A DNA stretch of 23,502 bases from Collodictyon triciliatum (lineage: Eukaryota): the NCBI GenBank assembly GCA_043381765.1, contig JBHJMP010000834.1:62001-85502 (forward strand), written 5' to 3'. The position numbers and the translations under genes are program-made. The notes under the pieces were generated by a model. It searched no databases. It was not told the origin of the DNA and saw only the letters and a list, made by a program, of their open reading frames with translations. Shown in pieces: positions 1-23,502 of this stretch (position 1 is the stretch's first letter; every line of letters begins with the position of its first letter).

Positions 1-488
1 AGACCGATAAAAGGTGTTAACCAAGGTCGGATTTTAGAATTGATTTGAACAAAATCTCCTAATTCCACCTTGTAACTTGGTTTATATATTTTTTGACCAT
101 TTACCAAAACATGGCCATGATTGATCAATTGTTTTGCAGTATATATTGAATTAGAGCTAAGCCCAGTTCTAAATAAAACCACATCTAATCTTAATTCTAG
201 GTTTCGCAGAAACCCGTTTGTCGATCTGGCTTTAACCAAATATCGACAAATGTTTCCCTGTCTAATATTACCATAAAAATGTCTTAATAGGGTTTGGATT
301 GGCATGTTCCTTTTGTGGAGAGCAGAAACCTTCGTCCCCCGTCCAGTCGAAGTCTGTTGCTCCGCTCTGTCACTATGACGGTCCGCAGCGGAGTTAAGTT
401 CATTATGAACGCGTGGGCCCCCTTGCCCATTGCCAGTTTTCCCCCTTAATCGTTTAAATTGCTTAATTTTTTTAGGTTTTTTTAACAT
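1..488 (-). CDS. rps4: Ribosomal protein S4, 5' part (runs off the window start)
   Basis: Hand translation from ATG at 488: MLKKPKKIKQFKRLRG...LLRHFYGNIRQ...LELRLDVVLFRTGL..SIYTAKQLINHGHVLVNGQKIYKPSYKVELGD. This is the S4 RNA-binding motif. Not in the ORF track because the stop is outside the window. Confidence 0.95.
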   Translation of the reverse strand, partial: MLKKPKKIKQFKRLRGKTGNGQGGPRVHNELNSAADRHSDRAEQQTSTGRGTKVSALHKRNMPIQTLLRHFYGNIRQGNICRYLVKARSTNGFLRNLELRLDVVLFRTGLSSNSIYTAKQLINHGHVLVNGQKIYKPSYKVELGDFVQINSKIRPWLTPFIG

Positions 489-648: not shown

Positions 649-706
649 GGGTCATCAAATAAAGCCCGGGCTTCTGGCCATCACCGCTTGCCAGTTAGTA
701 TAAAAA

Positions 707-1150
707 GTGGCTCTAAACATGAAAACTAAAAAAAGTGTAAAAAAACGTTTTTGGATAACAAGGAATAGAGGGAACAGTTGTTCCCGGTTTTTCTGTCACT
801 CTTTTGGTCGCAGCGACCTTTGTGAACTGGCTTCACCTATGCCGCTGAATCGCGGGCGAAGCCCAGTCGTAACGCCCGGAAAAAATGACGAGCGAAGCGA
901 CGTTGTTTCCCTCCGTTGCAGAGGAAACAAAGCAGAAGCAAAGCAGCTTATAGCATTTCAAAAGGCGGAGAAAAAGCACGATATCTTCCAGCGCAGCCGA
1001 TTGAGAGCATCTAAAAGATGCAGCAAGGAGCAAGCCCGTAACCAAAGCATATTAGCTAGAAGTGGTTCAGCTAAAAAAGGGTTTAATCCCGTCATCATTA
1101 AAAAATGTGATAAAAAACGATTATTAAAATGCTCCCCACGGTCATTATGA
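707..1150 (+). CDS. rpl35: Ribosomal protein L35-like, expanded by internal insertions (GTG 707 or ATG 719 start)
   Basis: N-terminus MKTKKSVKKRFWIT matches the bL35 signature (KT...AKRF..T). KAEKKHDIFQRS resembles the HA..RHILTKK block and PVIIKKCDKKRLLKCSP resembles the bL35 C-terminus. It lies directly upstream of rpl20, as in bacterial rpmI-rplT. Confidence 0.72.
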   Translation: MALNMKTKKSVKKRFWITRNRGNSCSRFFCHSFGRSDLCELASPMPLNRGRSPVVTPGKNDERSDVVSLRCRGNKAEAKQLIAFQKAEKKHDIFQRSRLRASKRCSKEQARNQSILARSGSAKKGFNPVIIKKCDKKRLLKCSPRSL

Positions 1151-1444
1151 AAGCTTGCTCTATCGGGACAAAGGGGTAGCCGACCGATGCCGCGGTTGGG
1201 GGCAAGACGTTTTGAGTCATCTGTTGGGCCGGAGAGTTTTCGAAGCCCGGTTCGCAGCGAACGTGCTTTATTTTTAGGGACCGTTCGCAGCGAACGGATA
1301 ACCATTCGGTCAAAGCCCTAACAATGGGGCCCAAGAGGTTCACTATGAACCGTGTAGAAAATAGGAAACGTTCAAAAGAGCAATAACCGGTGGGGCCGAT
1401 GACGACTGTTCCGGGCCCCGTAGAACGAAGTGAGTTGTTAAATA

Positions 1445-1705
1445 ATGAAAAACAAAGGTGCGTACGGGTTTCATGCGCACAATGGGGCTAAAGCCCGTGC
1501 GCATAAAAACAAGAAATTATATATTAGCAAACTTGGCAGTTGTTGCCGATTATATGGGTTATCTTTCGCTTCACTCATATCAAAATTAAAAGAAGAAAAT
1601 ATAAAATTAAATCGAGAAATCTTGCCATTATTAGCCATTTATGAACCAATGTCGCTTAAGGCAGTCATTAATAGGTCGCAGCATCAGTCACCCTCAAAAG
1701 AATGA
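1445..1705 (+). CDS. rpl20: Ribosomal protein L20, N-terminally shortened
   Basis: KLYISKLGSCCRLYGLSFASLISKLKEENIKLNREILPLLAIYEP matches the bL20 C-terminal domain (LWI.RINAA.R..G.SYS.FI..LK...I.L.RKIL..LA). Confidence 0.85.
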   Translation: MKNKGAYGFHAHNGAKARAHKNKKLYISKLGSCCRLYGLSFASLISKLKEENIKLNREILPLLAIYEPMSLKAVINRSQHQSPSKE

Positions 1706-1833: not shown

Positions 1834-2133
1834 ATGCTCAAAAAAAATTATCGCGACCAAAAACGAAGGTCACTCTTTGGAAAGCATGAATCTCTTAGAA
1901 TAGTTTTAAAAAGTATTATTTATAATCAAGAATTGCCAGAAGAAATTAGATTTAAAGCTCAATTAGAATTAGCATCATTACCTAAAGATTCTTCTAAAGT
2001 TAGAATTAGAAATCGTTGTGTTTTAACTGGAAGAGCTCGGGGTAATTATAGATTGTTCAAGATGAGCAGAATAAAATTTAGAGAATTAGCTTCAATGGGT
2101 ATGATACCTGGTATTACAAAAGCAAGTTGGTAG
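1834..2133 (+). CDS. rps14: Ribosomal protein S14 (homologous start ATG 1834; frame is open back to ATG 1702)
   Basis: RDQKRR...LPKDSSKVRIRNRCVLTGRARGNYRLFKMSRIKFRELASMGMIPGITKASW. Confidence 0.97.
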   Translation: MLKKNYRDQKRRSLFGKHESLRIVLKSIIYNQELPEEIRFKAQLELASLPKDSSKVRIRNRCVLTGRARGNYRLFKMSRIKFRELASMGMIPGITKASW

Positions 2134-2636: not shown

Positions 2637-3222
2637 ATGCGCTTGATGTGGCCTGAGCTCTGCCGGTTCGCGCCGGTCGTTCAAGCTGTCTAAGCTAACG
2701 ACCGTCTCTCCAGGTCGTTCGTTGCACGCGGGAGCCGCTTCGCTCAGTGGGGAACAGTCGTTCCCCCGCTCCTCCTCCCCGCATCACCCCGTAGCTGCAC
2801 TTAATCGAGGCAACCACGGTCCCTGAAAGCTGATTCGCTCCAATGAAGGGGATCGTTCTGCTCCTACGGTCCTACGGGCCGCCCCCTCTGACGTAGGACC
2901 GTAGCAGATGGGTCAAAGACGGGCCAACGACCCTCCTCCCCCGACTACCCTTTTCGCTGCAACGACTTTCTTGCCACAAAGACGCGATGGCCTATTTTTC
3001 ATAGTGCCAGTACAAAGGTATGAAGAGGAGAATAAGCTCTACGGGGTGGCTGGGAAGCGCAATTCCCACCCTGAATGCGTGTTCGGGGCTGCTGACTTTG
3101 CTCGGGTGGCTAAAGAGAGTGACCCCAAACGACAGCATCGATTAGAGAGAGACTGAACCTTCCCCTTCCCCCTTCCAGCTTCACCCCTTCCCCCTCGGTT
3201 TATCCTGCTTTAAGAAATAAGG

Positions 3223-3301
3223 CCTTCGGACCCTTCGGACCCTTCGGACCCTTCGGACCCTTCGGACCCTTCGGACCCTTCGGACCCTTCGGACCCTTCG
3301 G
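3223..3301. repeat. Tandem array of a 9-bp unit CCTTCGGAC, 8 full copies plus a partial copy
   Basis: Read directly; ends 16 nt upstream of the nad4L ATG. Confidence 0.97.
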
Positions 3302-3317
3302 CCGCAAAATAAGATTT

Positions 3318-3961: not shown

Positions 3962-4294
3962 CTAGCGAACCGAAAGTTTGTTGACCATAGTAGAAAATCG
4001 AAGTAATGATGTGGCCCGGCTTGGTCCGTTCATTCGGTCGGGAGAGGGTTCATTCGCTACGCTTGTCAGCAGCTGCCCATCCTGCCGAAGGGTCCGAAGG
4101 GCAAGGTCATAATGTGGTTCATTGTGAACCTGATGATAGTTATTTTTATTATTTTTTGAGTCATATTCTAATTTTAAGATAGGGCTTGGAGTGGATTTAC
4201 CTCCCCCGTTAATTGTTGTTCGCATTTCACATGTTGTTCCATTTGATAAGAAAACTAATAATTTGCTTAATTGAGGATGTTTATTTTTTTTCAT
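3962..4294 (-). CDS. rpl31: Ribosomal protein L31 with repeat-derived C-terminal extension
   Basis: MKKNKHPQLSKLLVFLSNGTT...ILKLEYDSKN matches the alphaproteobacterial/mitochondrial bL31 pattern MKK.IHP......V..SDG...L.LD.D.. Confidence 0.85.
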   Translation of the reverse strand: MKKNKHPQLSKLLVFLSNGTTCEMRTTINGGGKSTPSPILKLEYDSKNNKNNYHQVHNEPHYDLALRTLRQDGQLLTSVANEPSPDRMNGPSRATSLLRFSTMVNKLSVR

Positions 4295-4812
4295 TTTTAG
4301 TTGCGTGTCAATCGCTGTCTAACGACAGCTTGCACCTTGACGGTGGGGGAAACATCGCCGTCCGCCCGAGCGAAGGGGGGGCCCGTTACGACACGGCGAG
4401 TATGCTGTCATTAGCCGGTTAACCTTGGCCTATGACCTTGGCTATGACCTCCCTGGACAGAGGAACCTCCTCGAGTGCGGGGAGGAAGGCGGTCACACGC
4501 TGCTTGATTATGCTGAAGTGTAACGAAGCGAGGGAGCAAACAAGGTCGCAGCAAAAAGAAACCAAGCTGTCGTATCGTTAGGCGCTACGTGCCACTTCGC
4601 AAGTAGTCTAACGATACTCCCGGCATTAAAGTACAAGGACATTGCGGCTTGGCCAAATAACGCTTATCGATATATGGTTTGGCATTAGAGAACAACGCTC
4701 CGCCCCTTCGGCAAGGTAGGCACGAGAAGCGAAGCGATTCGGCTACGCCTACCTTTGTTTTTTTTGACCCGCTTCGCTCGGGGGAGAGAGAGAAACGAAT
4801 CCCCCGCTACGC

Positions 4813-4885
4813 TGGAGATGGTTGGGCATGATCCAACAACCTCGTATATGCAAAACACGAATTCTACCAATTGAACTACACCCCC
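4813..4885 (-). tRNA. trnA: tRNA-Ala(UGC)
   Basis: Cloverleaf GGGGGTG...CATCTCC-A with G3:U70; anticodon arm CGTGT-TTTGCAT-ATACG; T-loop ATCATGC. Confidence 0.95.
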
Positions 4886-5287
4886 ATTCGGTCAAAGCCC
4901 TAACAAGAGGGGAAGGAGAGTAAATTATTCCCCCCGCTCAAGGACACGGTCGCTAGCTCAGACTGGCCTTCGGCCGGTTAAGCGAAGCGTGGGTGCCTTT
5001 TATATACTCTTTAAAGGGAAAAGGCGGTCGTAACAACCTCCATTATGCACTACTACGACTCACACACATTCAGTGGGAACGTGTGACACGGTCCCGGACT
5101 GGAGAGGGAGGGGGAAGTCGCGGGTGGCCAGTTTTCGTTACGGATCGAAGCGGGGGCAATAAAACCAACAGTCGTACCCCTGTAGAGCGAAGCGACTCAC
5201 CCTTCGCTCCCGTAACGACTGTCCTTTCTGTCCTTATGACGGTTTCTCTGTCCAAGGGGAAGCGCAATGACTCAGGGTATATAAATA

Positions 5288-5358
5288 AGAAGAGTAGTTT
5301 AAGGGTAGAATATCGGCCTCCAAATTCGATGATATAGGTTCAAATCCTGTCTCTTCTG
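5288..5358 (+). tRNA. trnW: tRNA-Trp(CCA)
   Basis: Acceptor AGAAGAG/CTCTTCT, anticodon loop CTCCAAA, T-arm ATAGG-TTCAAAT-CCTGT. Confidence 0.93.
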
Positions 5359-5365
5359 TAATAAG

Positions 5366-5450
5366 GCTTCGGGCCGCTTCGGGCCGCTTCGGGCCGCTTC
5401 GGGCCACTTCGGGCCGCTTCGGGCCGCTTCGGGCCGCTTCGGGCCGCTCC
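5366..5450. repeat. Tandem array of a 10-bp unit GGGCCGCTTC, 8 copies (two with one substitution) plus a partial copy
   Basis: Read directly, immediately 3' of trnW. Confidence 0.97.
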
Positions 5451-5776
5451 GGCCCCCTTGTAAAGGAGGGGCGGCCTTGGGGTCGAGCAAAGATAATGCA
5501 GGCCGTGCTGCCCCTTTCACCCTTGCTCCGCATCGCCGGAGGACCGGGGCAACCCAAGCGTTAAGCTATCAAACTTTCGTAGCGACCGACACCACAGTGG
5601 CCGGCTTACGACACGGTCGTGCCTACCTTGCTGTTCACCCCGTAGAGCGACATTCTTAATCCAGGGTCCAAGGGGGGCCCTCCGACATGACGAATGTCGC
5701 TTCGCTCTACGGGGGCCCCCCCTTTTCTTCGCTGGACACGTAACGACACGCAACTAAAAAAAACAGAGCCGGACAA

Positions 5777-6319
5777 ATGAAAAAAACGTCTTTTACCCTT
5801 CGTTTAAAAATCTTAGCTACAAAAGCAACACCAAAACCTCCAATCGGACCAATATTAGGCCAATATTCAATTAATTTAATGGAATTTTGTAAAGAGTTTA
5901 ATGAGCGTAGCAGTCAAATATATAAACCAAATAGAGGTAGTCGCGGAATCATAGTCCCAACAATCGTTAAAATAAGAGAAGATAAAAGCTATTCAATCGA
6001 ATTAAAACCAATAAGTGTTAGTGGAATGCTAGAATTACTTGGACAAGGAAAATTATCAGCATCAGGAGGTCATAATGACCGCGCCCCTCGCCGCAAAAAA
6101 ATAATAGATGCACGAATCATTTATGAGATTGCTATTATACGCATCGCTCGATTCGCTGTGGAAGCAAAGGGCCAAACCTTGTCCCCCCTTCCTAACGACC
6201 GCAGCATAGGAAACTTTGTTTCCAGCCAAAGGCCTTCCCACATCTTTAATGAATGCTTAATGATTAAGGGAACTATTAAATCAATGGGGTATAAAATTAT
6301 TGGACCTAAAGACCTATGA
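5777..6319 (+). CDS. rpl11: Ribosomal protein L11 with insertions
   Basis: LKILATKATPKPPIGPILGQYSINLMEFCKEFNERS...IVPTIVKIREDKSY...IYEIA...MIKGTIKSMGYKI. Confidence 0.96.
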   Translation: MKKTSFTLRLKILATKATPKPPIGPILGQYSINLMEFCKEFNERSSQIYKPNRGSRGIIVPTIVKIREDKSYSIELKPISVSGMLELLGQGKLSASGGHNDRAPRRKKIIDARIIYEIAIIRIARFAVEAKGQTLSPLPNDRSIGNFVSSQRPSHIFNECLMIKGTIKSMGYKIIGPKDL

Positions 6320-8538
6320 TTAATATTATTATTGATGGTAAAGAATTGCGGGCGAAGCCTGGTTTAACTATACTTCAGGCTTGTGCTAGTATAGGCATAA
6401 CAATTCCTAGATTTTGTTATCATGAAAGATTATCAATAGCAGGAAATTGTAGAATGTGCTTAGTTGAAATTGCTAAATCTCCAAAACCAGTAGCATCTTG
6501 TGCATTACAAATAGATAATGGAATGATTATTAAAACAAATTCGGATCTAGTTAAAAAAGCTAGAGAAGGAGTAATGGAATTACTTTTAGCAAATCACCCA
6601 TTAGATTGTCCAATATGTGATCAAGGAGGAGAATGCGATTTACAAGATCAAACAATGGTTTATGGAAGCGATAGAGGTAGATTTAAAGAAGATAAAAGAG
6701 TAGTAGAAGATAAAAATCTTGGACCATTTATTAAAACAATAATGACTAGATGTATCCATTGTACTCGATGTATTCGTTTTGCCAGCGAAATCGCTGGAGT
6801 TCCTTTATTAGGTTTAACTGGTCGAGGAGGTTCAATGGAAGTTGGTACTTATGTTGAAAAAACATTAGATTCCGAATTATCAGGTAATGTTATTGATCTT
6901 TGTCCTGTTGGTGCTTTAACTTCTAAACCTTTTGCTTTTACTGCCAGAAATTGGGAATTAAGATCGGTTAATTCTATCGATGTTACTGATCCAATGGGAT
7001 CAAATATTAGAATAGATCATAGAGGAGGAAAGGTTTTTAGAATAATCCCTAGATTAAATGAAGAAATTAATGAAGAATGGATTACCGATAAAATTCGATT
7101 TCTTTATGACTCCTTTTATAAACAACGATTAAATAAACCGCTCATTAGAAGTAGCCGAAGAGGTGAAACGAGCGAAGCGACTCACCAAAATGGTCGATTA
7201 ATACCTACAAATTGGCAAAATGCCTTTGAGGTTATAACAACTAAGCTTAAAGGCATCTCCGGAGCAAGCAAAGCGCAATTAATCGAATTTAAAATAGGAC
7301 CTTTAATTGAAGTAGAACAATTATTAGTTTTTAAAGATCTTTTAACTAAATTAGGAGTATCTATTAAAGGATGTATTGGAAACTCCCTTGATTTTAGATC
7401 CGATTTTACTCTTGGTTGTGGATTAAAAAACGCTTCACTTGAACTATCTACAGTTTTATTAATAGGAGCAGCTGATATTCCTTTATTAAATGTTAGATTA
7501 AAAAAGGGCGGAGTTCACAATGAACCACTTGCTCCTACAGCCCCTTCTTTATTCTTAATAGGGAATTATCGTGACCTGACTCAACCTTTTAAACATTTAG
7601 GGAATGGACCTAAATCAATTTTTAAAATCTTACAAGGAAAAGATCCCTTCTGTAGATTATTAATTAAAGAAAACAACGTAGCCATTTTATTTGGTTTTAA
7701 TGGACCATTTGTTCAACGAGCAATTGATTCACTTAAACATTTAACATATTGGATAGGTAAAGATCGTTGCCCTGGTCCAAGAAGAACATTTATTGTCGCT
7801 CCAATTCATCAGACAATGTCAAAAATAAATGGAAGCGAAATAGGATTAGAAGACGGTCGTGCCGACCCCTCATCAAAAACGGAAACACGGAAAAACGGTT
7901 CTCCACTTGGTCCTTATTCACCCCAGATTGTCTTTAATCTAGGAAATGAAATAAAAAAAAATGGAGGGAGGGAAGGCGAGGTCGCACCTTTTAATATTTA
8001 TCTAGGACATCATGGTAGTGGTCAAATAAATTTAGCAGATGTAATCTTACCTGGAGCCACTTTCATTGAAAAAAATAGTACTTATTTAAATATTGAAGGA
8101 AGAACTCAAGAAACTAGATTAGTCAACCTACCACCAGATTTAGCAAGAGAAGATTGGAAAATTTTAAAAGCTTTATCCGGCCTTATCGACCTACAGGGTA
8201 ATGAACATGCTCCCCGGCTCTATAAAAAAGGAGAAGGACCTCTGTTCGGTAATGAACCCAGCGTAACGACTGCGTCATCCGGTCCATTGTCCTTACCATT
8301 CTCCTCAAAATCAATGTTATCATCTAGAGGTTTCGCTGTTTCACCTCACTTATTAGATTTAGGACGATTACCACAACAAGATCCAGTGCTTTTACAAAAA
8401 CCTTTTAGACCTTTAAAAATTCAATTAAGACCATTTAAAAGAGTGCCTTATTTAACGGACCCTTTAACTCAAAATAGTAAAAATCTTTGTATTGCGGCTA
8501 CTACTTTTAAATTAGGTGTGTTTCCGCTCGTATCATAA
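6316..8538 (+). CDS. nad11: NADH dehydrogenase subunit 11 (75 kDa / NuoG homologue)
   Basis: IPRFCYHERLSIAGNCRMC, HPLDCPICDQGGECDLQD, RCIHCTRCIRF and DLCPVGALT Fe-S motifs; C-terminal ADVILPG...EK..TYLNIEGRTQ; ATGA overlap with rpl11. Confidence 0.99.
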   Translation: MINIIIDGKELRAKPGLTILQACASIGITIPRFCYHERLSIAGNCRMCLVEIAKSPKPVASCALQIDNGMIIKTNSDLVKKAREGVMELLLANHPLDCPICDQGGECDLQDQTMVYGSDRGRFKEDKRVVEDKNLGPFIKTIMTRCIHCTRCIRFASEIAGVPLLGLTGRGGSMEVGTYVEKTLDSELSGNVIDLCPVGALTSKPFAFTARNWELRSVNSIDVTDPMGSNIRIDHRGGKVFRIIPRLNEEINEEWITDKIRFLYDSFYKQRLNKPLIRSSRRGETSEATHQNGRLIPTNWQNAFEVITTKLKGISGASKAQLIEFKIGPLIEVEQLLVFKDLLTKLGVSIKGCIGNSLDFRSDFTLGCGLKNASLELSTVLLIGAADIPLLNVRLKKGGVHNEPLAPTAPSLFLIGNYRDLTQPFKHLGNGPKSIFKILQGKDPFCRLLIKENNVAILFGFNGPFVQRAIDSLKHLTYWIGKDRCPGPRRTFIVAPIHQTMSKINGSEIGLEDGRADPSSKTETRKNGSPLGPYSPQIVFNLGNEIKKNGGREGEVAPFNIYLGHHGSGQINLADVILPGATFIEKNSTYLNIEGRTQETRLVNLPPDLAREDWKILKALSGLIDLQGNEHAPRLYKKGEGPLFGNEPSVTTASSGPLSLPFSSKSMLSSRGFAVSPHLLDLGRLPQQDPVLLQKPFRPLKIQLRPFKRVPYLTDPLTQNSKNLCIAATTFKLGVFPLVS

Positions 8539-8997: not shown

Positions 8998-8999
8998 AT

Positions 9000-9073
9000 T
9001 TGTGGAGATAGGATTTGAACCTATGACCTTCAGATTATGAGCCTGATGAGCTACCAACCTGCTCTACCCCACA
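9000..9073 (-). tRNA. trnfM: Initiator tRNA-fMet(CAU)
   Basis: TGTGGGGTAGAGCAGGTTGGTAGCTCATCAGGCTCATAATCTGAAGGTC...GGTTCAAATCC closely follows the bacterial fMet pattern. Confidence 0.92.
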
Positions 9074-9675
9074 ATGAAATAGTATTAAAAGGAGATGCCT
9101 GGACTGTATTCTACCTTCCTGTTAAGTACGCGTTTTCCACCAACAGAACTGAAGGGTTGACGACGAGCGAGGGTCTGATGAGCTATTTTTCGTTACGGAG
9201 CGGAAGGAATAGTCGTTTGGAACAGCGACGTCCTATTGCGCTTGCGGCGTCGTCATTGCTTCGCTCCCTTTCTGCGCAAGACGGTCACTATGAAGCGTTT
9301 CATTACTTTAAATAAGCTTTTGTACGTCTTCGCTGCGGTCGATACGACCTTGACCCTTGGACCTTGACCATCTCGATAGGCCATCCAGGCTTAAATAGGC
9401 CACCAAGCGAAGAATGACGACCTTTGACCCGTCCACATGTCGAGGCCCCTGACTGGGTAAATAGGCACCCTAATTATATACTCAACAATAAGGGGGTAGG
9501 CCCGGGGGCGCCGGGCCAATTCCGTTCACTATGAAAGAAGGGGATTGGGCCAGTCGTTGACGCGGGAAAAAAACACAGTGACCGCATCCTTACGGGCAGC
9601 AGCCAGTTCATAGTGGAAAGCAGCGAACAGGTTTTTCGCGTCGTCGTAAGGGTGGCCCCCTTCACACGCGGGAGC

Positions 9676-11023: not shown

Positions 11024-11759
11024 AAAGTCGCTCAAGTCGTGATGCTACATTCATAGAGGTGAGGACCGGTTTAACGACCGCAAGGCAGGGAGAAAATAAG
11101 CTCCATCATGACAAGCTCCCCTTGCTCTACGAGCGAATGAAGGCGAGCGAAGCAGGAATAGTTTACATCCCGTGACCCAGATGTTACGGGTCCGGCTAAC
11201 ACAGGCGAGCGAAGCGACTTTGTTTCAAGCGAAGCGGTTATGCTCTTCGTTACGGGGGAAAGATGAGACGCCAAGCGAAGCGGTTATAAGCTTATTCTTT
11301 AGACTGGGTGGTGTAAAGAGGAGTGACGGGGTGCGAAGTGATCCTGCATATATATTTATCAAACTAAACTACCCACCCTTCCCTTCGCACCCTTAAGTGA
11401 ACCCGATTCTGAGGTCCCCGAAGGTCGCTTGGTATGAAAAGGTTGCTTGGTATGAAGGAGGGAAAAGCCGTTGGACCGTCGAAGCAAGTTTATCTACGAA
11501 CGGAGTAACCTTCGTGTGCGGGACAGCTTATCTATTGCTTATAACTATTGGATCGAAGCCAGTCGCTACGAAAGCCCCAGTAGAGCGCCGCCGTCTCTTG
11601 AGCGAAGCCGTCTCTTCTTTCCTTTGGCCTATAAGGTTGGACGGGAATGTATTCTTGCTCACCCTTTTCGCTTAGCCGCCCGTTACGACCTCGACCCCAG
11701 CAGCTACGGCCTTCCCTTAACGTTCGTAGTTACCACTTTCATACCCCGGCCTTAAAGGT

Positions 11760-11825
11760 CCGTCCCTGCTGTCATGTGTTTGAAGCTTAAATGACCGTCC
11801 CTGCTGTCATGTGTTTGAAGCTTAA
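11760..11825 (+). repeat. 31-bp direct duplication (period 35) covering the 5' leader and first 15 nt of trnR
   Basis: CCGTCCCTGCTGTCATGTGTTTGAAGCTTAA at 11760-11790 and 11795-11825. Confidence 0.95.
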
Positions 11826-11884
11826 TTGGATTGAGCGTCAGATTGCGAATCTGAAGGTAGAAAGTTCAAATCTTTCCAAACACG
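11811..11884 (+). tRNA. trnR: tRNA-Arg(GCG)
   Basis: GTGTTTG/CAAACAC-G acceptor; TCAGA-TTGCGAA-TCTGA anticodon arm; GAAAG-TTCAAAT-CTTTC T-arm; A at position 8. Confidence 0.92.
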
Positions 11885-12576
11885 AAAACGGAGCGGAGCG
11901 CCCTCGAAAGAACCTTCCCATGTAGAGCGAAGCGACACTTATCGTTGGAAGCTGCTATAACAACGAGCTTAATGAGACCACCGGTTGACCCCTAACGACA
12001 GGAAGAGTGCATAATGCAAGGTCGAACCCCCGTCATTGTGGAAACGAGCTCTGGAGTGCTTATCTACTATGACCTTGTTCTTTCGCCCGAGTTGAGGAAC
12101 AAGGTCAGGGACTGCGTGTTCATATCGTCTAACAAGCAAGGGCGGGAAATGAACCTCTTGCCACTTACCTTTTCCCTCTATATTCTTGCTCTCCTCCCCC
12201 GGCAAGGGCGAAATGACAGCATCGCAAGGGTGTTGTTCAAGGCTGGATTGTGCGGGACCGCTTATCTACTGCTTATAACAGTGCCTATGAACCGGAGTGT
12301 GTGTGGTGGTGCATTATGCTGTTCACTATGAACCAGACGAAGGAAGGGAAAATAAGATTGCCAACTGTCGTTTGGAGCTTTGCTCCTGCCTGGCCCCCTT
12401 ATGACACACAACAAAAAGAACAGAAAACGGACCGTACCCACTTTCCCGTTTCGACCTTGAATGGCCTTTTTCGGACGAAGGGGAAATGTGGGTCGTTACG
12501 ACCCGTACCATTTCCCCCTTCATTAGTATTGCGGCTCCCCCTTTGCGGTCGTAACGACATGAACGCTACCCCTTTA

Positions 12577-12765
12577 TTATGTTAAAAGCGGGAGAGGATG
12601 GAGCGAAGCAGCATAGTGATGCCGTCTTTTTATAAGCAAACACCCGCGTCGTTTTGACCTAGATATACCAGCTTCACCTCGTTCGTAATGGGGGTTCACC
12701 AGCCATCTTAATTTTCGTTTTAAGGCTCTTCTTCTAAAGCTAACTTTTTTTTTAGGTACACTCAT
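12577..12765 (-). CDS. rpl32: Ribosomal protein L32
   Basis: MSVPKKKVSFRRRALKR matches the bL32 start MAVPK.K.S..R...RR; C-terminal KRRHH-like block. Confidence 0.85.
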   Translation of the reverse strand: MSVPKKKVSFRRRALKRKLRWLVNPHYERGEAGISRSKRRGCLLIKRRHHYAASLHPLPLLT

Positions 12766-13990: not shown

Positions 13991-15684
13991 ATGAAGTGGG
14001 CTGTTGCTGCCCCTTCCCAAACCTGACAAGCTGGTTTCCCAGCATCAGGCTTTAAAACCGCTGCTTCGGCGAGCTGGCGGCCCGTTAAAATAACGCTTTG
14101 CAAGCAAAACGTATTGTAGTAATGAATCAAGGTGGCCTATCGTCAACAGAAAAAAGATGTTGTCCCTTTTCTCGCTTTGCTCTACGGGAACGACACGGGG
14201 GAAAGCGGGGAACTGGAAAATAAGATTTTCCGGTTGTCCCAACAGTCGTTAATACTTGCCGGTTGGCCCCCTATTAGGCAAAGCTAGTTCACGATGAACC
14301 TCTCTTTGCCTGGCGAGAGAAGCGAGGGCCTCTTTGCCCGGAAGGAACGCTTATCGATTGTTTGTTCTGCATCCAAGGTCGTAGAAGAGGTCACAGCGAC
14401 CGCGTGCATCAATGAGTTGACTCCCGGGTGGAAAGACCTATTCATTAAGGTCTATTTAATTCTTTTGTATTCATCTGGGGCTAAAGAGAGGGAAGCGGGG
14501 CCTTCTTTCACTATTATTACAAAGCAATGAATGAAGAACAGCCGTTCCCCCTCCCTTGAACGCGGCTACGCTCCGAGAATAAGGCACATAAACAACCGAG
14601 AAGCGAATACAACATTTCAATTTAATTTCCAAGCTTGTAACAATGAATGGCGGCAAGTACAAGGAATCTCGCCTGTCCTTCCCAAACAAATTTAGGTGGT
14701 TCCTCGAAACAATCTAGTGCAAGGTCATAACGCTTCGCTTGCCTCTTGCCCCCCAGCTTATAGGCCATCGGCCTGTTCCTTATAGGCGGTTACTGTATAA
14801 TGCTGCACTTATTATGGAACCGGGGGCTGAGATTTTTTGACTTCTAAGCTACTTTTGCTTATCACCTTTTTTGTTCTTAATTCAAAACAGGTTATTGTCC
14901 CTTTAGGTAGAGATCGTGAACAACTTCACTTGCGAACGGAATAAAGAAGCCGCTTCGCTCAAGTAGGGCAAGTGCCGCAGAGCGTCATGCCCGCCTGTCC
15001 TTGCTCTCCCTTCCCTTCGATCCCGTAACGACTGTTCTTTCTGTCCTTATGAAGCAGCTTACGACCGCGTGCCTTATGAAGCGCGACTGGGGTTCTAGGT
15101 CATTGTGACCGGAAGCAAAGGGAACGCGCTTCCGGCCGGAGGCAAGTCAGAGCTAAATACAAACAGGCTTTTCGCGTCGTCCCCCGTCCGCTTGAATGAC
15201 TGGAAACGAGCTCATGGGGCGCAAAGCCAGTGCCGGTCAACCACCACTATCAGAAAGCGGTCCAAGTGGGCTTTTGTACGCTCCGTCTTCGTTCCATTTC
15301 ACCGGCAGCTGCTCTTCACAACGATGTGGCTTTGTGGCTTTGCCTAAAACGACGTAGTCCCCAGAATATATAGGGGACCCGCCGGCGGGCGGGCGGCTGA
15401 GCGAAGCGGGAGCATCACAGAGGCGAAAGGAGTGAGAGCGACAACGTTGACAACAAAGCGACTTTACCAGTGCAAGGGAACGACTGTTGCAATCTTATTT
15501 TCCAGTTCCCTTTCATCTGCCACCCTTTTACAACTGTCCTTTATGTAGAAAAGTTGAGCGAAGCGACTTTACCCCGACCTGGGCGTACGCATACCCCAAC
15601 AACTGCGACATTCGTTCTTCTTCGCCTTATCTCAGGTTAGTTTTGAATAATATAAGCTCATTTGGAAATTAAAAATGATCACAC
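13991..15684 (-). mobile_element. Group IIA intron in nad7, 1694 nt, no intact ORF
   Basis: 5' end GTGTG. Domain V AAGCCTGATGCTGGGAAACCAGCTTGTCAGGTTT (14052-14019). Domain VI GAAGGGGC..GCCC-A-CTTC with bulged A (13997) 7 nt from the terminal AT. EBS1 TGCAGC (14807-14802) in an ATAAT/ATTAT hairpin is complementary to the exon end GCTGCA. Splicing restores NFGPQHPAA|HGVLRL. Confidence 0.96.
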
Positions 15685-19889: not shown

Positions 19890-20360
19890 TTAATTAAGGT
19901 TGGGAGTAGCGACTGTATTAATTGGTAATTTAATTTTACCGGCCTTTAGCCAGCTTTTAATGGTACTCGCTTTGTTTTTTTGATGATCTCCCTTATGCGT
20001 TTCACTTGAAGAAAGGGAAGTAGCCAGTGATACTTCAAATAATATTTGTCCAGGTTTAACTTTTGCAACCCAAAAACTTGGAACACCTTTACCTTTACCC
20101 ATTCTAACTTCAGTAGGTTTTTCAGTAACAGGAGTATGTGGGAATATTCTAATCCAAACTTGTGCTAATCGTCCGTGTCCCTGTTTTTTTATTTCCTTAT
20201 TAATTGCTTTTAGGGCTGATTCGATTTGTTTAGCAGTTATTCGTCCATATTCTAATGCTCTTAATCCAAATGAGCCATAACATAAAAAATCCTCTTTTAT
20301 TCCTTTACCTATTTTACCTTTTTGAACTTTTCTATATTTAACTTTTCTTGGTTGTAGCAT
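19890..20360 (-). CDS. rpl16: Ribosomal protein L16
   Basis: MLQPRKVKYRKVQKG...WIRIFPHTPVTEKPTEVRMGKGKG...KPGQILFEV...KLPI. Confidence 0.98.
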   Translation of the reverse strand: MLQPRKVKYRKVQKGKIGKGIKEDFLCYGSFGLRALEYGRITAKQIESALKAINKEIKKQGHGRLAQVWIRIFPHTPVTEKPTEVRMGKGKGVPSFWVAKVKPGQILFEVSLATSLSSSETHKGDHQKNKASTIKSWLKAGKIKLPINTVATPNLN

Positions 20361-21391: not shown

Positions 21392-21853
21392 TTATCTCCC
21401 TATCCGAATTTCAGTCAGATCAAGACGAAGCCGAACTCCAACTGGTAATTTTTCTAAATGGGATGTGGGTGAAGCCGATGGGGCAAACCCATCAATAATT
21501 AAAGTAGGATGAATCATGCCTTTAATCACCCCGCCTGTTTGATTCGTTGCTGCGGTTTTCGAAATGGTTTGAACCCTGTCATTCGACCTTGAATGAGGTA
21601 TAGCTGGTGATGTGAAGACGGGTTCACAACGCGTTGCCCCGCTTGGTTGGCAACCGATCTTATTATGATCAACCATTATTATTGAACTTTTTCTTATTTG
21701 TTGTTCTAATTGATCTCTAGATTTTTTATCAATATGTGGACTTCTTAAAACAGTAAATCGTTTAATTTTTTTAGGATGCATTATAGAGGAATTAACCGAA
21801 AATGGCCATCCTTCTAATGTTACAGAATAAGAATGAATGTGAAGAGTTTTCAT
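21392..21853 (-). CDS. rps10: Ribosomal protein S10, divergent with large insertion
   Basis: PKKIKRFTVLRSPHIDKKSRDQLE signature and C-terminal LPVGV. Confidence 0.93.
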   Translation of the reverse strand: MKTLHIHSYSVTLEGWPFSVNSSIMHPKKIKRFTVLRSPHIDKKSRDQLEQQIRKSSIIMVDHNKIGCQPSGATRCEPVFTSPAIPHSRSNDRVQTISKTAATNQTGGVIKGMIHPTLIIDGFAPSASPTSHLEKLPVGVRLRLDLTEIRIGR

Positions 21854-22013: not shown

Positions 22014-22087
22014 TAGCCTTAGGAGGGCATGATCCTCCGACATTACCATTATGAGTGGTATGTTCTAACCAACTGAACTATAAGGCC
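22014..22087 (-). tRNA. trnI: tRNA with CAU anticodon, most likely tRNA-Ile(CAU, lysidine type)
   Basis: GGCCTTATAGTTCAGTTGGTTAGAACATACCACTCATAATGGT...TAAGGCT-A resembles mitochondrial trnI(cau) genes; elongator Met is not strictly excluded. Confidence 0.8.
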
Positions 22088-22983: not shown

Positions 22984-23038
22984 CTTGCCCGTTCTTCGAT
23001 GCTACGGGGACTTGCCCGTTCTTCGATGCTACGGGGAC
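22984..23038. repeat. Perfect tandem duplication of a 27-bp unit CTTGCCCGTTCTTCGATGCTACGGGGA
   Basis: 22984-23010 and 23011-23037 are identical. Confidence 0.95.
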
Positions 23039-23502
23039 ATAAGGCCTTGGTAAGGTTTAACAAGATTAAAATTAAGTACCAAAAGTTTAAGGTCGCAACG
23101 ACCGCAAGTCATTGCTGAACGAGCGAACGATGATGATGAGGGTCAAGGTCAGGGACCGTATAGGGCGGACCAAAGACATAGGGGGCCGGAACGACAGTTG
23201 GAAGCGCAATCTTGCGCTTCGCTTCGCTTCGCTTCCCTTCCCCACTCTTTGCTGATAACACGAATGACGCTTCACTCCCCCCTTCCACTCTCCTACGCTA
23301 CGGACCTTAACTCCGGTCTTCCAAGAGGAAGGACGGTCAATACGAAAGCTTGAGCTAAAGTTGAGCGACTGCAGCTTCGACCTGGGGAGCAAAAGTGGCC
23401 TTCGGTAGGTTCACTTGTCTTTGTGGCCTTAACAGTAATGTTTGGTTCAACAACCCAACCCTGGTATCCTTGCACCCATCTTGCTCGGCACTTCCCCCCC
23501 CC

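Follow-up and report, generated by a model that had tools for sequence, protein, structure and literature searches.

An enlarged, hypervariable form of a probable mitochondrial rpl35 in a collodictyonid related to Diphylleia rotans

Mitochondrial rpl35 is rare in the published record. In its accessible text, Burger 2013 reports the gene only in Andalucia (PMC3590771), the available part of Kamikawa 2014 discusses its loss in discobids (PMC3942025), and the Mantamonas preprint, in the sections at hand, counts it among the rare genes of Mantamonas (10.1101/2024.01.30.577968). The accessible material of Butenko 2024 gives mitochondrial rpl35 accessions for Andalucia and Tsukubamonas, and its Additional file 2 enters an 'orf9281' under rpl35 for Diphylleia rotans, with no nuclear transcript (PMC10809612). 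Going by the available methods text of that study and by its Dictyostelium row, the prefix of 'orf9281' would denote an ORF of the mitochondrial genome. The D. rotans genome paper, in its accessible text, names no rpl35 and no unassigned ORF of fewer than 98 codons (PMC4779616), and neither that paper nor the Mantamonas comparison, as far as both are accessible, credits Diphylleia with the gene. Here we describe a related locus in which an ORF of 143 codons is most likely a divergent rpl35. What is new is the bloated, hypervariable form, the gene and its order being already known in the group; our literature search, which covered mainly journals outside subscription, found no description of the long form in print.

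The window, the whole 23,502-nucleotide stretch that was analysed, is mitochondrial DNA (mtDNA) of a collodictyonid (CRuMs) that is near D. rotans yet separate from that species. It carries nad4L, nad7, nad8, nad11, ccmC, 9 tRNAs and about 16 ribosomal protein genes. D. rotans proteins fall in the 90% clusters of the window's rps11 and rps14, identities to D. rotans are 113/119 for rps11, 95/99 for rps14 and 57/86 for L20, and D. rotans palindromes of types A–C are absent within the window. The D. rotans entry that clusters with the window's rps11 (P0059) is labelled 'ribosomal protein S13' in UniRef/nr, which looks like a swapped annotation. An earlier note on this DNA had called rpl35 rare in mtDNA, naming jakobids as an example. 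The rarity stands, but the host is a relative of Diphylleia rather than a jakobid-like exception, in a group with rpl35 on record (Mantamonas, and D. rotans in a supplement, in the parts of these sources available). At least half of the sampled window words are held by 20 of the 24 listed sequencing runs, from 17 studies, and five runs may be the source. The host is common in fresh water and widespread across lake metagenomes, and population data therefore exist. Those 20 runs, together with three metagenomic loci that encode a protein identical to the window's rpl35 (L001–L003), argue that the window sequence is free of assembly artefact.

Several other features of the window may interest annotators. 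A basic 62-aa ORF at 12577–12765 (minus strand) is rpl32-like by eye, with no Pfam match at E up to 1. A tRNA-Ala is called by ARAGORN yet does not reach the Rfam gathering score, with 4811–4886 and 22014–22087 (both minus strand) flagged, and two tRNAs have a CAT anticodon (8999–9074 and 22014–22087). The rpl35 region itself is laid out as follows.

1..488, minus strand: rps4, 5′ part, with an S4 domain (Pfam E 1.4e-14), oriented divergently to rpl35; it is also the neighbour in metagenomic loci L004–L008
501..519, minus strand: TAGTATA..AAAAGTG, a motif 12 nt upstream of the rps4 ATG that may serve as a promoter or initiation signal (candidate)
696..709, plus strand: TAGTATA..AAAAGTG motif (pattern match), 9 nt before the rpl35 ATG, including GTG 707
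719..1150, plus strand: rpl35 (bL35m), long form, 143 aa (open frame, homologues, profile alignment, selection)
719..763, plus strand: N-terminal L35 block, residues 1–15, corresponding to alphaproteobacterial L35 4–18 (0/2000 shuffles; 14/15 identical to the D. rotans type; GC 0.24)
764..1036, plus strand: variable in-frame middle, residues 16–106, 91 codons (GC 0.51, GC3 0.49)
770..785, no strand assigned: short hairpin at the insert's start, near copy at 2750–2765
872..1036, plus strand: stretch of the middle that cannot be aligned to L005, the nearest relative (89 of 144 aligned positions mismatched), containing GAGCGAAGCGA at 890
938..997, plus strand: weak L35-like middle block, residues 74–93, of uncertain status (His87 on invariant His31)
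1037..1138, plus strand: conserved C-terminal block, residues 107–140 (in register with L35 30–63; dN/dS 0.19 against the D. rotans type)
1151..1444, no strand assigned: rpl35–rpl20 spacer, 294 nt (frameshifting indels between relatives)
1445..1705, plus strand: rpl20, 86 aa, without about 35 first residues of bacterial L20 (PF00453 positions 43–106 of 107, E 2.7e-10)
1834..2133, plus strand: rps14, 99 aa (profile match, synteny)

The rpl35 frame is open on the plus strand from 707 or 719 to 1150 (147 or 143 aa), as the earlier note had read it. We place the start at ATG 719, because GTG 707, which the ORF finder had chosen, lies inside the upstream motif and is directly followed by TAG in the D. 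rotans-type loci L007 and L008. A 143-aa reading of rps14 from 1702 was dropped, its extension not being conserved. The TAGTATA..AAAAGTG pattern, defined after both sites were seen, has two matches in the window, a number reached by 0 of 100 shuffles, and occurs twice in each of L004–L008; the 40 nt preceding each of 16 other starts contain none. These mirror-image motifs before the divergent rps4 and rpl35 form a candidate bidirectional promoter pair, conserved to the D. rotans type. A sigma-70 promoter scan stayed at chance level (6 versus 3.7).

Repeated searches for relatives converged on one small family, comprising long forms of 143, 145 and 148–150 aa and a form of 62 aa; two family entries of 207 aa run through a TGA stop and are evidently under another code. 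Viral contigs, genome contigs and plasmids yielded no relatives, and the ESM Atlas no usable match for the long or short form. A metagenome scan gave eight loci, three of the window type (L001–L003), three of the 145-aa type (L004–L006) and two short (L007 and L008); in all eight, rps4 lies divergently upstream where the sequence permits and rpl20 lies downstream. The short gene has 62 codons (L007:695–883 and L008:807–995, protein P0006) and is unnamed in the accessible text of the 2016 D. rotans genome paper. It represents the D. rotans type, because L008 encodes an L20 identical to that of D. rotans and also bears type B and C palindromes, and it is probably orf9281, a match made by locus.

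This insert-free orthologue supports the view that the window's L35 has more than doubled in length. Relative to the 62-aa form there are 81 extra residues, and 78 of these fall in 764–1036, so the insert is larger than the roughly 60 codons (about 761–945) assigned to it before; those limits would be right only if the middle block, which is weak, were real. Among nine aligned proteins, residues 1–15 and 108–137 are common to all and the region between them differs, with a middle of 13 residues in the D. rotans type and of 91, 91, 94 and 96 in the long forms. Four sequences (L001, P0105, P0106 and a contig of run X15) look like chimeras of both types and were not used as haplotypes: rpl20 and the upstream sequence switch between window and D. 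rotans type (in L001 at 735–1004), probably through assembly of co-occurring species. A contig of DNA run X12, covering window 678–1228, combines a window-type ORF with L005-type flanks, and this one contig suggests exchange between mitochondrial haplotypes.

Standard profiles miss the gene. The window protein scores 13.1 bits on Pfam PF01632 (cut-off 28.9) and 14.8 bits on NCBIfam TIGR00001 (cut-off 51.2), and the 62-aa form reaches 9.5–11.6 bits on the curated L35 profiles, also under cut-off. The N-terminal piece (first 16 residues) gives sub-cut-off matches to PF01632 (E 0.13) and TIGR00001 (E 6e-4), and standard libraries matched nothing else in the protein. We built profiles of 58 alphaproteobacterial L35 and 46 L20 proteins, drawn from 62 bacterial loci (usable L35 from 58, usable L20 from 46), plus E. 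coli; locus L106, flagged as unpublished, was excluded from all profiles. With hhalign, the nine homologues align to the 59 L35 rows (58 alphaproteobacterial plus E. coli) at a probability of 89% (E 2.2e-6, columns 1–60 on positions 4–63); the same family aligns to L20 at 1.5%, and E. coli L35 alone gives no match. The profile search that the earlier note had envisaged, with and without the insert, thus left every form under the Pfam cut-off, whereas alignment at the family level favoured L35. HMM alignment of the 62-aa form to L35 is a single domain of 20.4 bits, the best among 2000 shuffles reaching 12.4.

Three bL35-like blocks had been proposed, and they fare unequally. The score of the N-terminal block on the alphaproteobacterial L35 profile is reached by none of 2000 shuffles; its basic motif ends in K-K-R-F, and K2, R10 and F11 are invariant over the 58 L35 rows. 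The C-terminal block is conserved in all nine proteins and has its best ungapped place at L35 30–63, but 227 of 2000 shuffles score equally, so that alone it is non-significant; the L35 signal comes mostly from the first 15 residues. The middle block (residues 74–93) is weak. It beats 180 of 180 intergenic control windows, 25 of 3000 shuffles equal or exceed its score, and with residues 80–100 placed ungapped the figure is 282 of 2000; P0004 repeats 4 of 10 residues in register and P0065 none, and the block is not kept in the nearest relative or the D. rotans type. His87 of the window protein aligns on the invariant His31, is in register in P0004 and is missing in P0065, the alignments disagreeing, and the aligned homologues show no family-wide conserved counterpart of His31. 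Against the PDB, phmmer found no match for the protein, and the family profile found a sole match, a bL35 (E 0.049). Two AlphaFold models are of low confidence (pTM 0.17 and 0.18), with no Foldseek match; the alignment behind the second was seeded with bacterial L35 and is therefore circular and not counted as evidence.

Gene order adds to this, L35 preceding L20 in 61 of 61 alphaproteobacterial loci that have an L35 match and rpl20 being the next gene downstream of rpl35, on the same strand, in the window. The two are not directly adjoining, as had been stated: the gap is 294 nt here and 96 nt in L008, against an alphaproteobacterial median of 14 nt. Support for the proposed mitochondrial rpl35 in rpmI–rplT order comes from the orthologue without the insert, from the alignment of profiles, from synteny and from the selection seen in both terminal blocks, and the ORF is most likely a divergent rpl35 whose incorporation into the ribosome is predicted. 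An independent lineage thereby confirms mtDNA rpl35 in collodictyonids.

Both terminal blocks are under purifying selection. Compared with the D. rotans type they carry 9 synonymous changes at 26 sites and 9 nonsynonymous changes at 106 (dN/dS about 0.2, Fisher p 0.002); for rpl20, dN/dS is 0.32. In a rival reading, the ORF derives from rpl35 and is translated under selection without being any longer a folded bL35 at its site: its basic ends alone would bind RNA, or it would serve another role, and the ribosome would use a nuclear bL35m or none. In its favour, degeneracy of the core extends to the 62-aa form, with 2 K/R among the 13 residues of its middle; the scores fall far beneath the family cut-offs; and the rpl20 N-terminal extension is lost as well, which points to a remodelled large subunit. 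However, both ends keep the L35 register, the 62-aa form retains the length of L35, and the accessible Butenko 2024 table lists no nuclear rpl35 for D. rotans (PMC10809612). We consider this alternative unlikely.

The window rpl20 scores 40.8 bits on PF00453 (cut-off 30.8) through its C-terminal globular domain and falls under the cut-off of the full-length TIGR01032; in E. coli, according to the accessible text of the source, L20's globular domain at the C-terminus binds 23S rRNA, and its N-terminus forms a long extension (PMC1888825). Because the D. rotans L20 (89 aa; L008:1092–1361) starts at the same point, the N-terminal loss is a lineage trait, and no trace of the missing 35 or so residues was found nearby. 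A mini-ORF at 1345–1386 was rejected as a lost rpl20 start: it is out of frame and matches no family when read through, L005 has a 5-nt insertion that breaks it, and L008 lacks it. Compensation for the lost L20 arm was rejected as a role of the insert, as D. rotans lacks both.

In composition, the insert is close to intergenic DNA: its GC is 0.51, against 0.52 in intergenic sequence and 0.24–0.33 in the blocks, and its GC3 is 0.49, against 0.22 in the blocks and 0.14 in gene cores. Both motifs singled out in the earlier note sit where it had placed them, the palindrome GGTCGCAGCGACC at 806 as a single copy in the window and GAGCGAAGCGA at 890 as one of 10. Its description of the insert as built from the genome's repeats is not borne out, repeat coverage (the share covered by 11-mers or 12-mers found elsewhere in the window) being 24% for 11-mers, where 30 intergenic windows have a median of 38%, and 19% against 23% for 12-mers. 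The insert is intergenic-like DNA with a few short motifs and no repeat array. An origin by inversion or copying of other DNA in the window was discarded, no match longer than 21 nt occurring in the window or L004–L008 beyond the orthologous part. In other places the window does hold spacer tandem arrays (9-nt and 10-nt hairpin-like units and a 5-nt pyrimidine unit; 3214–3312, 5356–5469, 598–656 and 23011–23063), and a 35-nt tandem duplication at 11751–11885 overlaps the 5′ end of tRNA-Arg(GCG).

Comparison with L005 shows how the insert changes. The flanking genes differ from the window at 9/488 (rps4), 1/231 (rpl20), 2/298 (rps14) and 9/405 (rps8) positions, or 0.4–2%, with no indels, and the N-terminal and C-terminal blocks at 0/45 and 2/102. 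In the first 108 nt of the insert there are 7 differences, 6 nonsynonymous and 1 synonymous, and the next 165 nt are unalignable; for nonsynonymous change, insert and blocks differ with a p of only 0.054. Net changes in ORF length are +21, +6 and −21 nt (the −21 in the replaced part), all keeping the frame. Of the 20 indels outside gene cores, 4 have a length divisible by three, and most are of 4–5 nt. The corresponding test for frame-keeping gives p 0.02, a value that rests on merging 16- and 5-nt aligner gaps inside the unalignable part. The commonest indel between the relatives is a 4–5 nt duplication. The middle thus drifts, is partly replaced between close relatives, and is in frame in three lineages.

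Another reading is a young pseudogene: after a transfer to the nucleus, the long form would be decaying and its frame would be open by chance. The middle does change at intergenic rates, about 3% of overlapping intergenic windows of 91 codons (397/12414) lack a stop in any case, and the dN/dS against D. rotans may partly mirror past selection. Yet the frame is open in each of the three long lineages, whose middles differ, the near identity of both blocks to those of L005 contrasts with 7/108 in the adjoining insert and loss of alignability beyond it, the upstream motif is intact, and the sequence is present in RNA runs. We regard a pseudogene as improbable.

In-frame extra residues are general in this mtDNA, and L35 is extreme proportionally but not unique. 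In pairwise comparisons with rough boundaries, rps10, rpl31, rpl11 and rpl16 exceed their E. coli counterparts by 50, 40, 38 and 20 aa, and nad11 variants differ through indels of 2–4 residues. The genes with such in-frame segments lie at 21392–21853 (rps10), 3962–4294 (rpl31), 5777–6319 (rpl11), 19890–20360 (rpl16) and 6316–8538 (nad11). The Pfam match of rps10 is limited to model positions 29–74 of 98, and this protein may be as altered as L35.

Removal of the insert during expression, as a degenerate intron or by trans-splicing, editing or ribosomal bypassing, would yield an L35 of normal size. D. rotans has both cis- and trans-spliced mitochondrial introns, according to the accessible text of its genome paper (PMC4779616), and a hairpin stands at the start of the insert. 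However, the folding z is only −1.6, and Rfam intron models match nothing in the insert region. They do match the window at 13991–14054 (minus strand), with group II intron domains V/VI where the large nad7 exon starts, and nad7 has a group II intron in D. rotans also; in the 145-aa lineage, cob carries an intron upstream of rps4 (L005:1329–3771). Contigs from 3 of 3 RNA runs (of 6 RNA runs with the sequence) and from one DNA run span the insert unspliced, with no joint and no listed ORF change, although RNA evidence in the form of assembled contigs may include DNA, is strandless and may drop rare spliced forms. Further, a removed insert would have no need of a frame, and only 2 of its 91 codons are unseen among 861 core codons. 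Removal is very improbable. The RNA runs are uncovered at 500–692, contigs in two studies begin at 719/720 and the DNA run extends to 678; the starts at 719/720 weakly hint at a 5′ end, an effect that co-occurring DNA of the D. rotans type could also produce, through a graph junction.

It is barely credible that the N-terminal arm absent from L20 survives as the C-terminal block, the ORF being a fusion of an L35 start and an L20 start and rpl20 being split, since the fit in size and place (34 residues just upstream of an rpl20 without about 35) is countered by a score of −9.7 bits on the L20 profile, equalled by 1081 of 2000 shuffles, by a best place that is not the L20 N-terminus, and by the hhalign result of 1.5% for L20 against 89% for L35.

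The reading that we favour, and think probable, is that of a working bL35m gene, still located upstream of rpl20 like the ancestral rpmI–rplT pair. Its translated product would be a degenerate protein that binds rRNA with its ends and loops out a neutral linker between them. A mutational process that inflates intergenic DNA through 4–6 nt duplications, hairpin and motif insertions and patch replacements would also have struck rpl35 after residue 15, at what we take to be the β-hairpin turn of bL35. In-frame, stop-free outcomes alone would survive, because both ends are proposed to be needed in one chain. Translation would continue across the insert, large-subunit rRNA would be bound by the basic N-terminal block and by the C-terminal helix, and the roughly 80 insert residues would loop out as a disordered linker with no sequence requirement. 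The L35 core would already have been degenerate in the ancestor common with D. rotans, and an insert would therefore probably have been tolerable.

A bolder version of this translated bL35m, which we rate as quite unlikely, sees an expansion in progress: a segment of junk DNA, its length held at 91–96 residues and its sequence swapped among recombining haplotypes, in a ribosome that also lacks the L20 arm. If the segment were ordered on the ribosome and its length mattered, it would be a population-level example of mitoribosomal extensions arising neutrally and then becoming needed. Sister species with L35 of 62 aa and of 143–150 aa lend themselves to asking how far a small rRNA-embedded protein tolerates insertion, and how mitoribosomal extensions originate. 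The inferred ancestral gene set is unchanged, and the mechanism, junk insertions surviving in frame, is ordinary.

Among known systems, the D. rotans-type locus is compared most directly. It has the same order of rps4, rpl35, rpl20, rps14, rps8, nad4L and rpl31 as the window (an order in which the available D. rotans accession numbers also run), and it shares the terminal blocks, upstream motif and shortened L20; it differs in the length of L35 (62 versus 143 aa), of the middle (13 versus 91 residues) and of the spacer (96 versus 294 nt). Andalucia godoyi, Tsukubamonas globosa and Mantamonas sphyraenae have rpl35 in their mtDNA as the window does, by the accessible parts of the respective reports (PMC3590771, PMC3942025, 10.1101/2024.01.30.577968), but those mtDNAs are compact, unlike the window, and the comparison concerns gene presence. 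In Andalucia, the rpl35 and rpl20 accession numbers available are consecutive, so the pair is probably adjacent there too. Bacterial bL35 (PF01632, TIGR00001) shares the N-terminal K-T-K..K-K-R-F, the C-terminal Asp..Pro register and the gene order with the window; it is 63–83 aa long (median 65) with no internal insert, whereas the window protein has 143 aa and lacks the first three residues, and the invariant His31 and Arg42/Arg45/Gly46 of bL35 are only partly traceable in it. Nucleus-encoded bL35m and chloroplast L35 in the PDB, with chains of 114–173 aa, exceed bacterial L35 as the window form does, but there the extra length precedes the domain (match from residue 47–111), whereas in the window it lies inside the domain.
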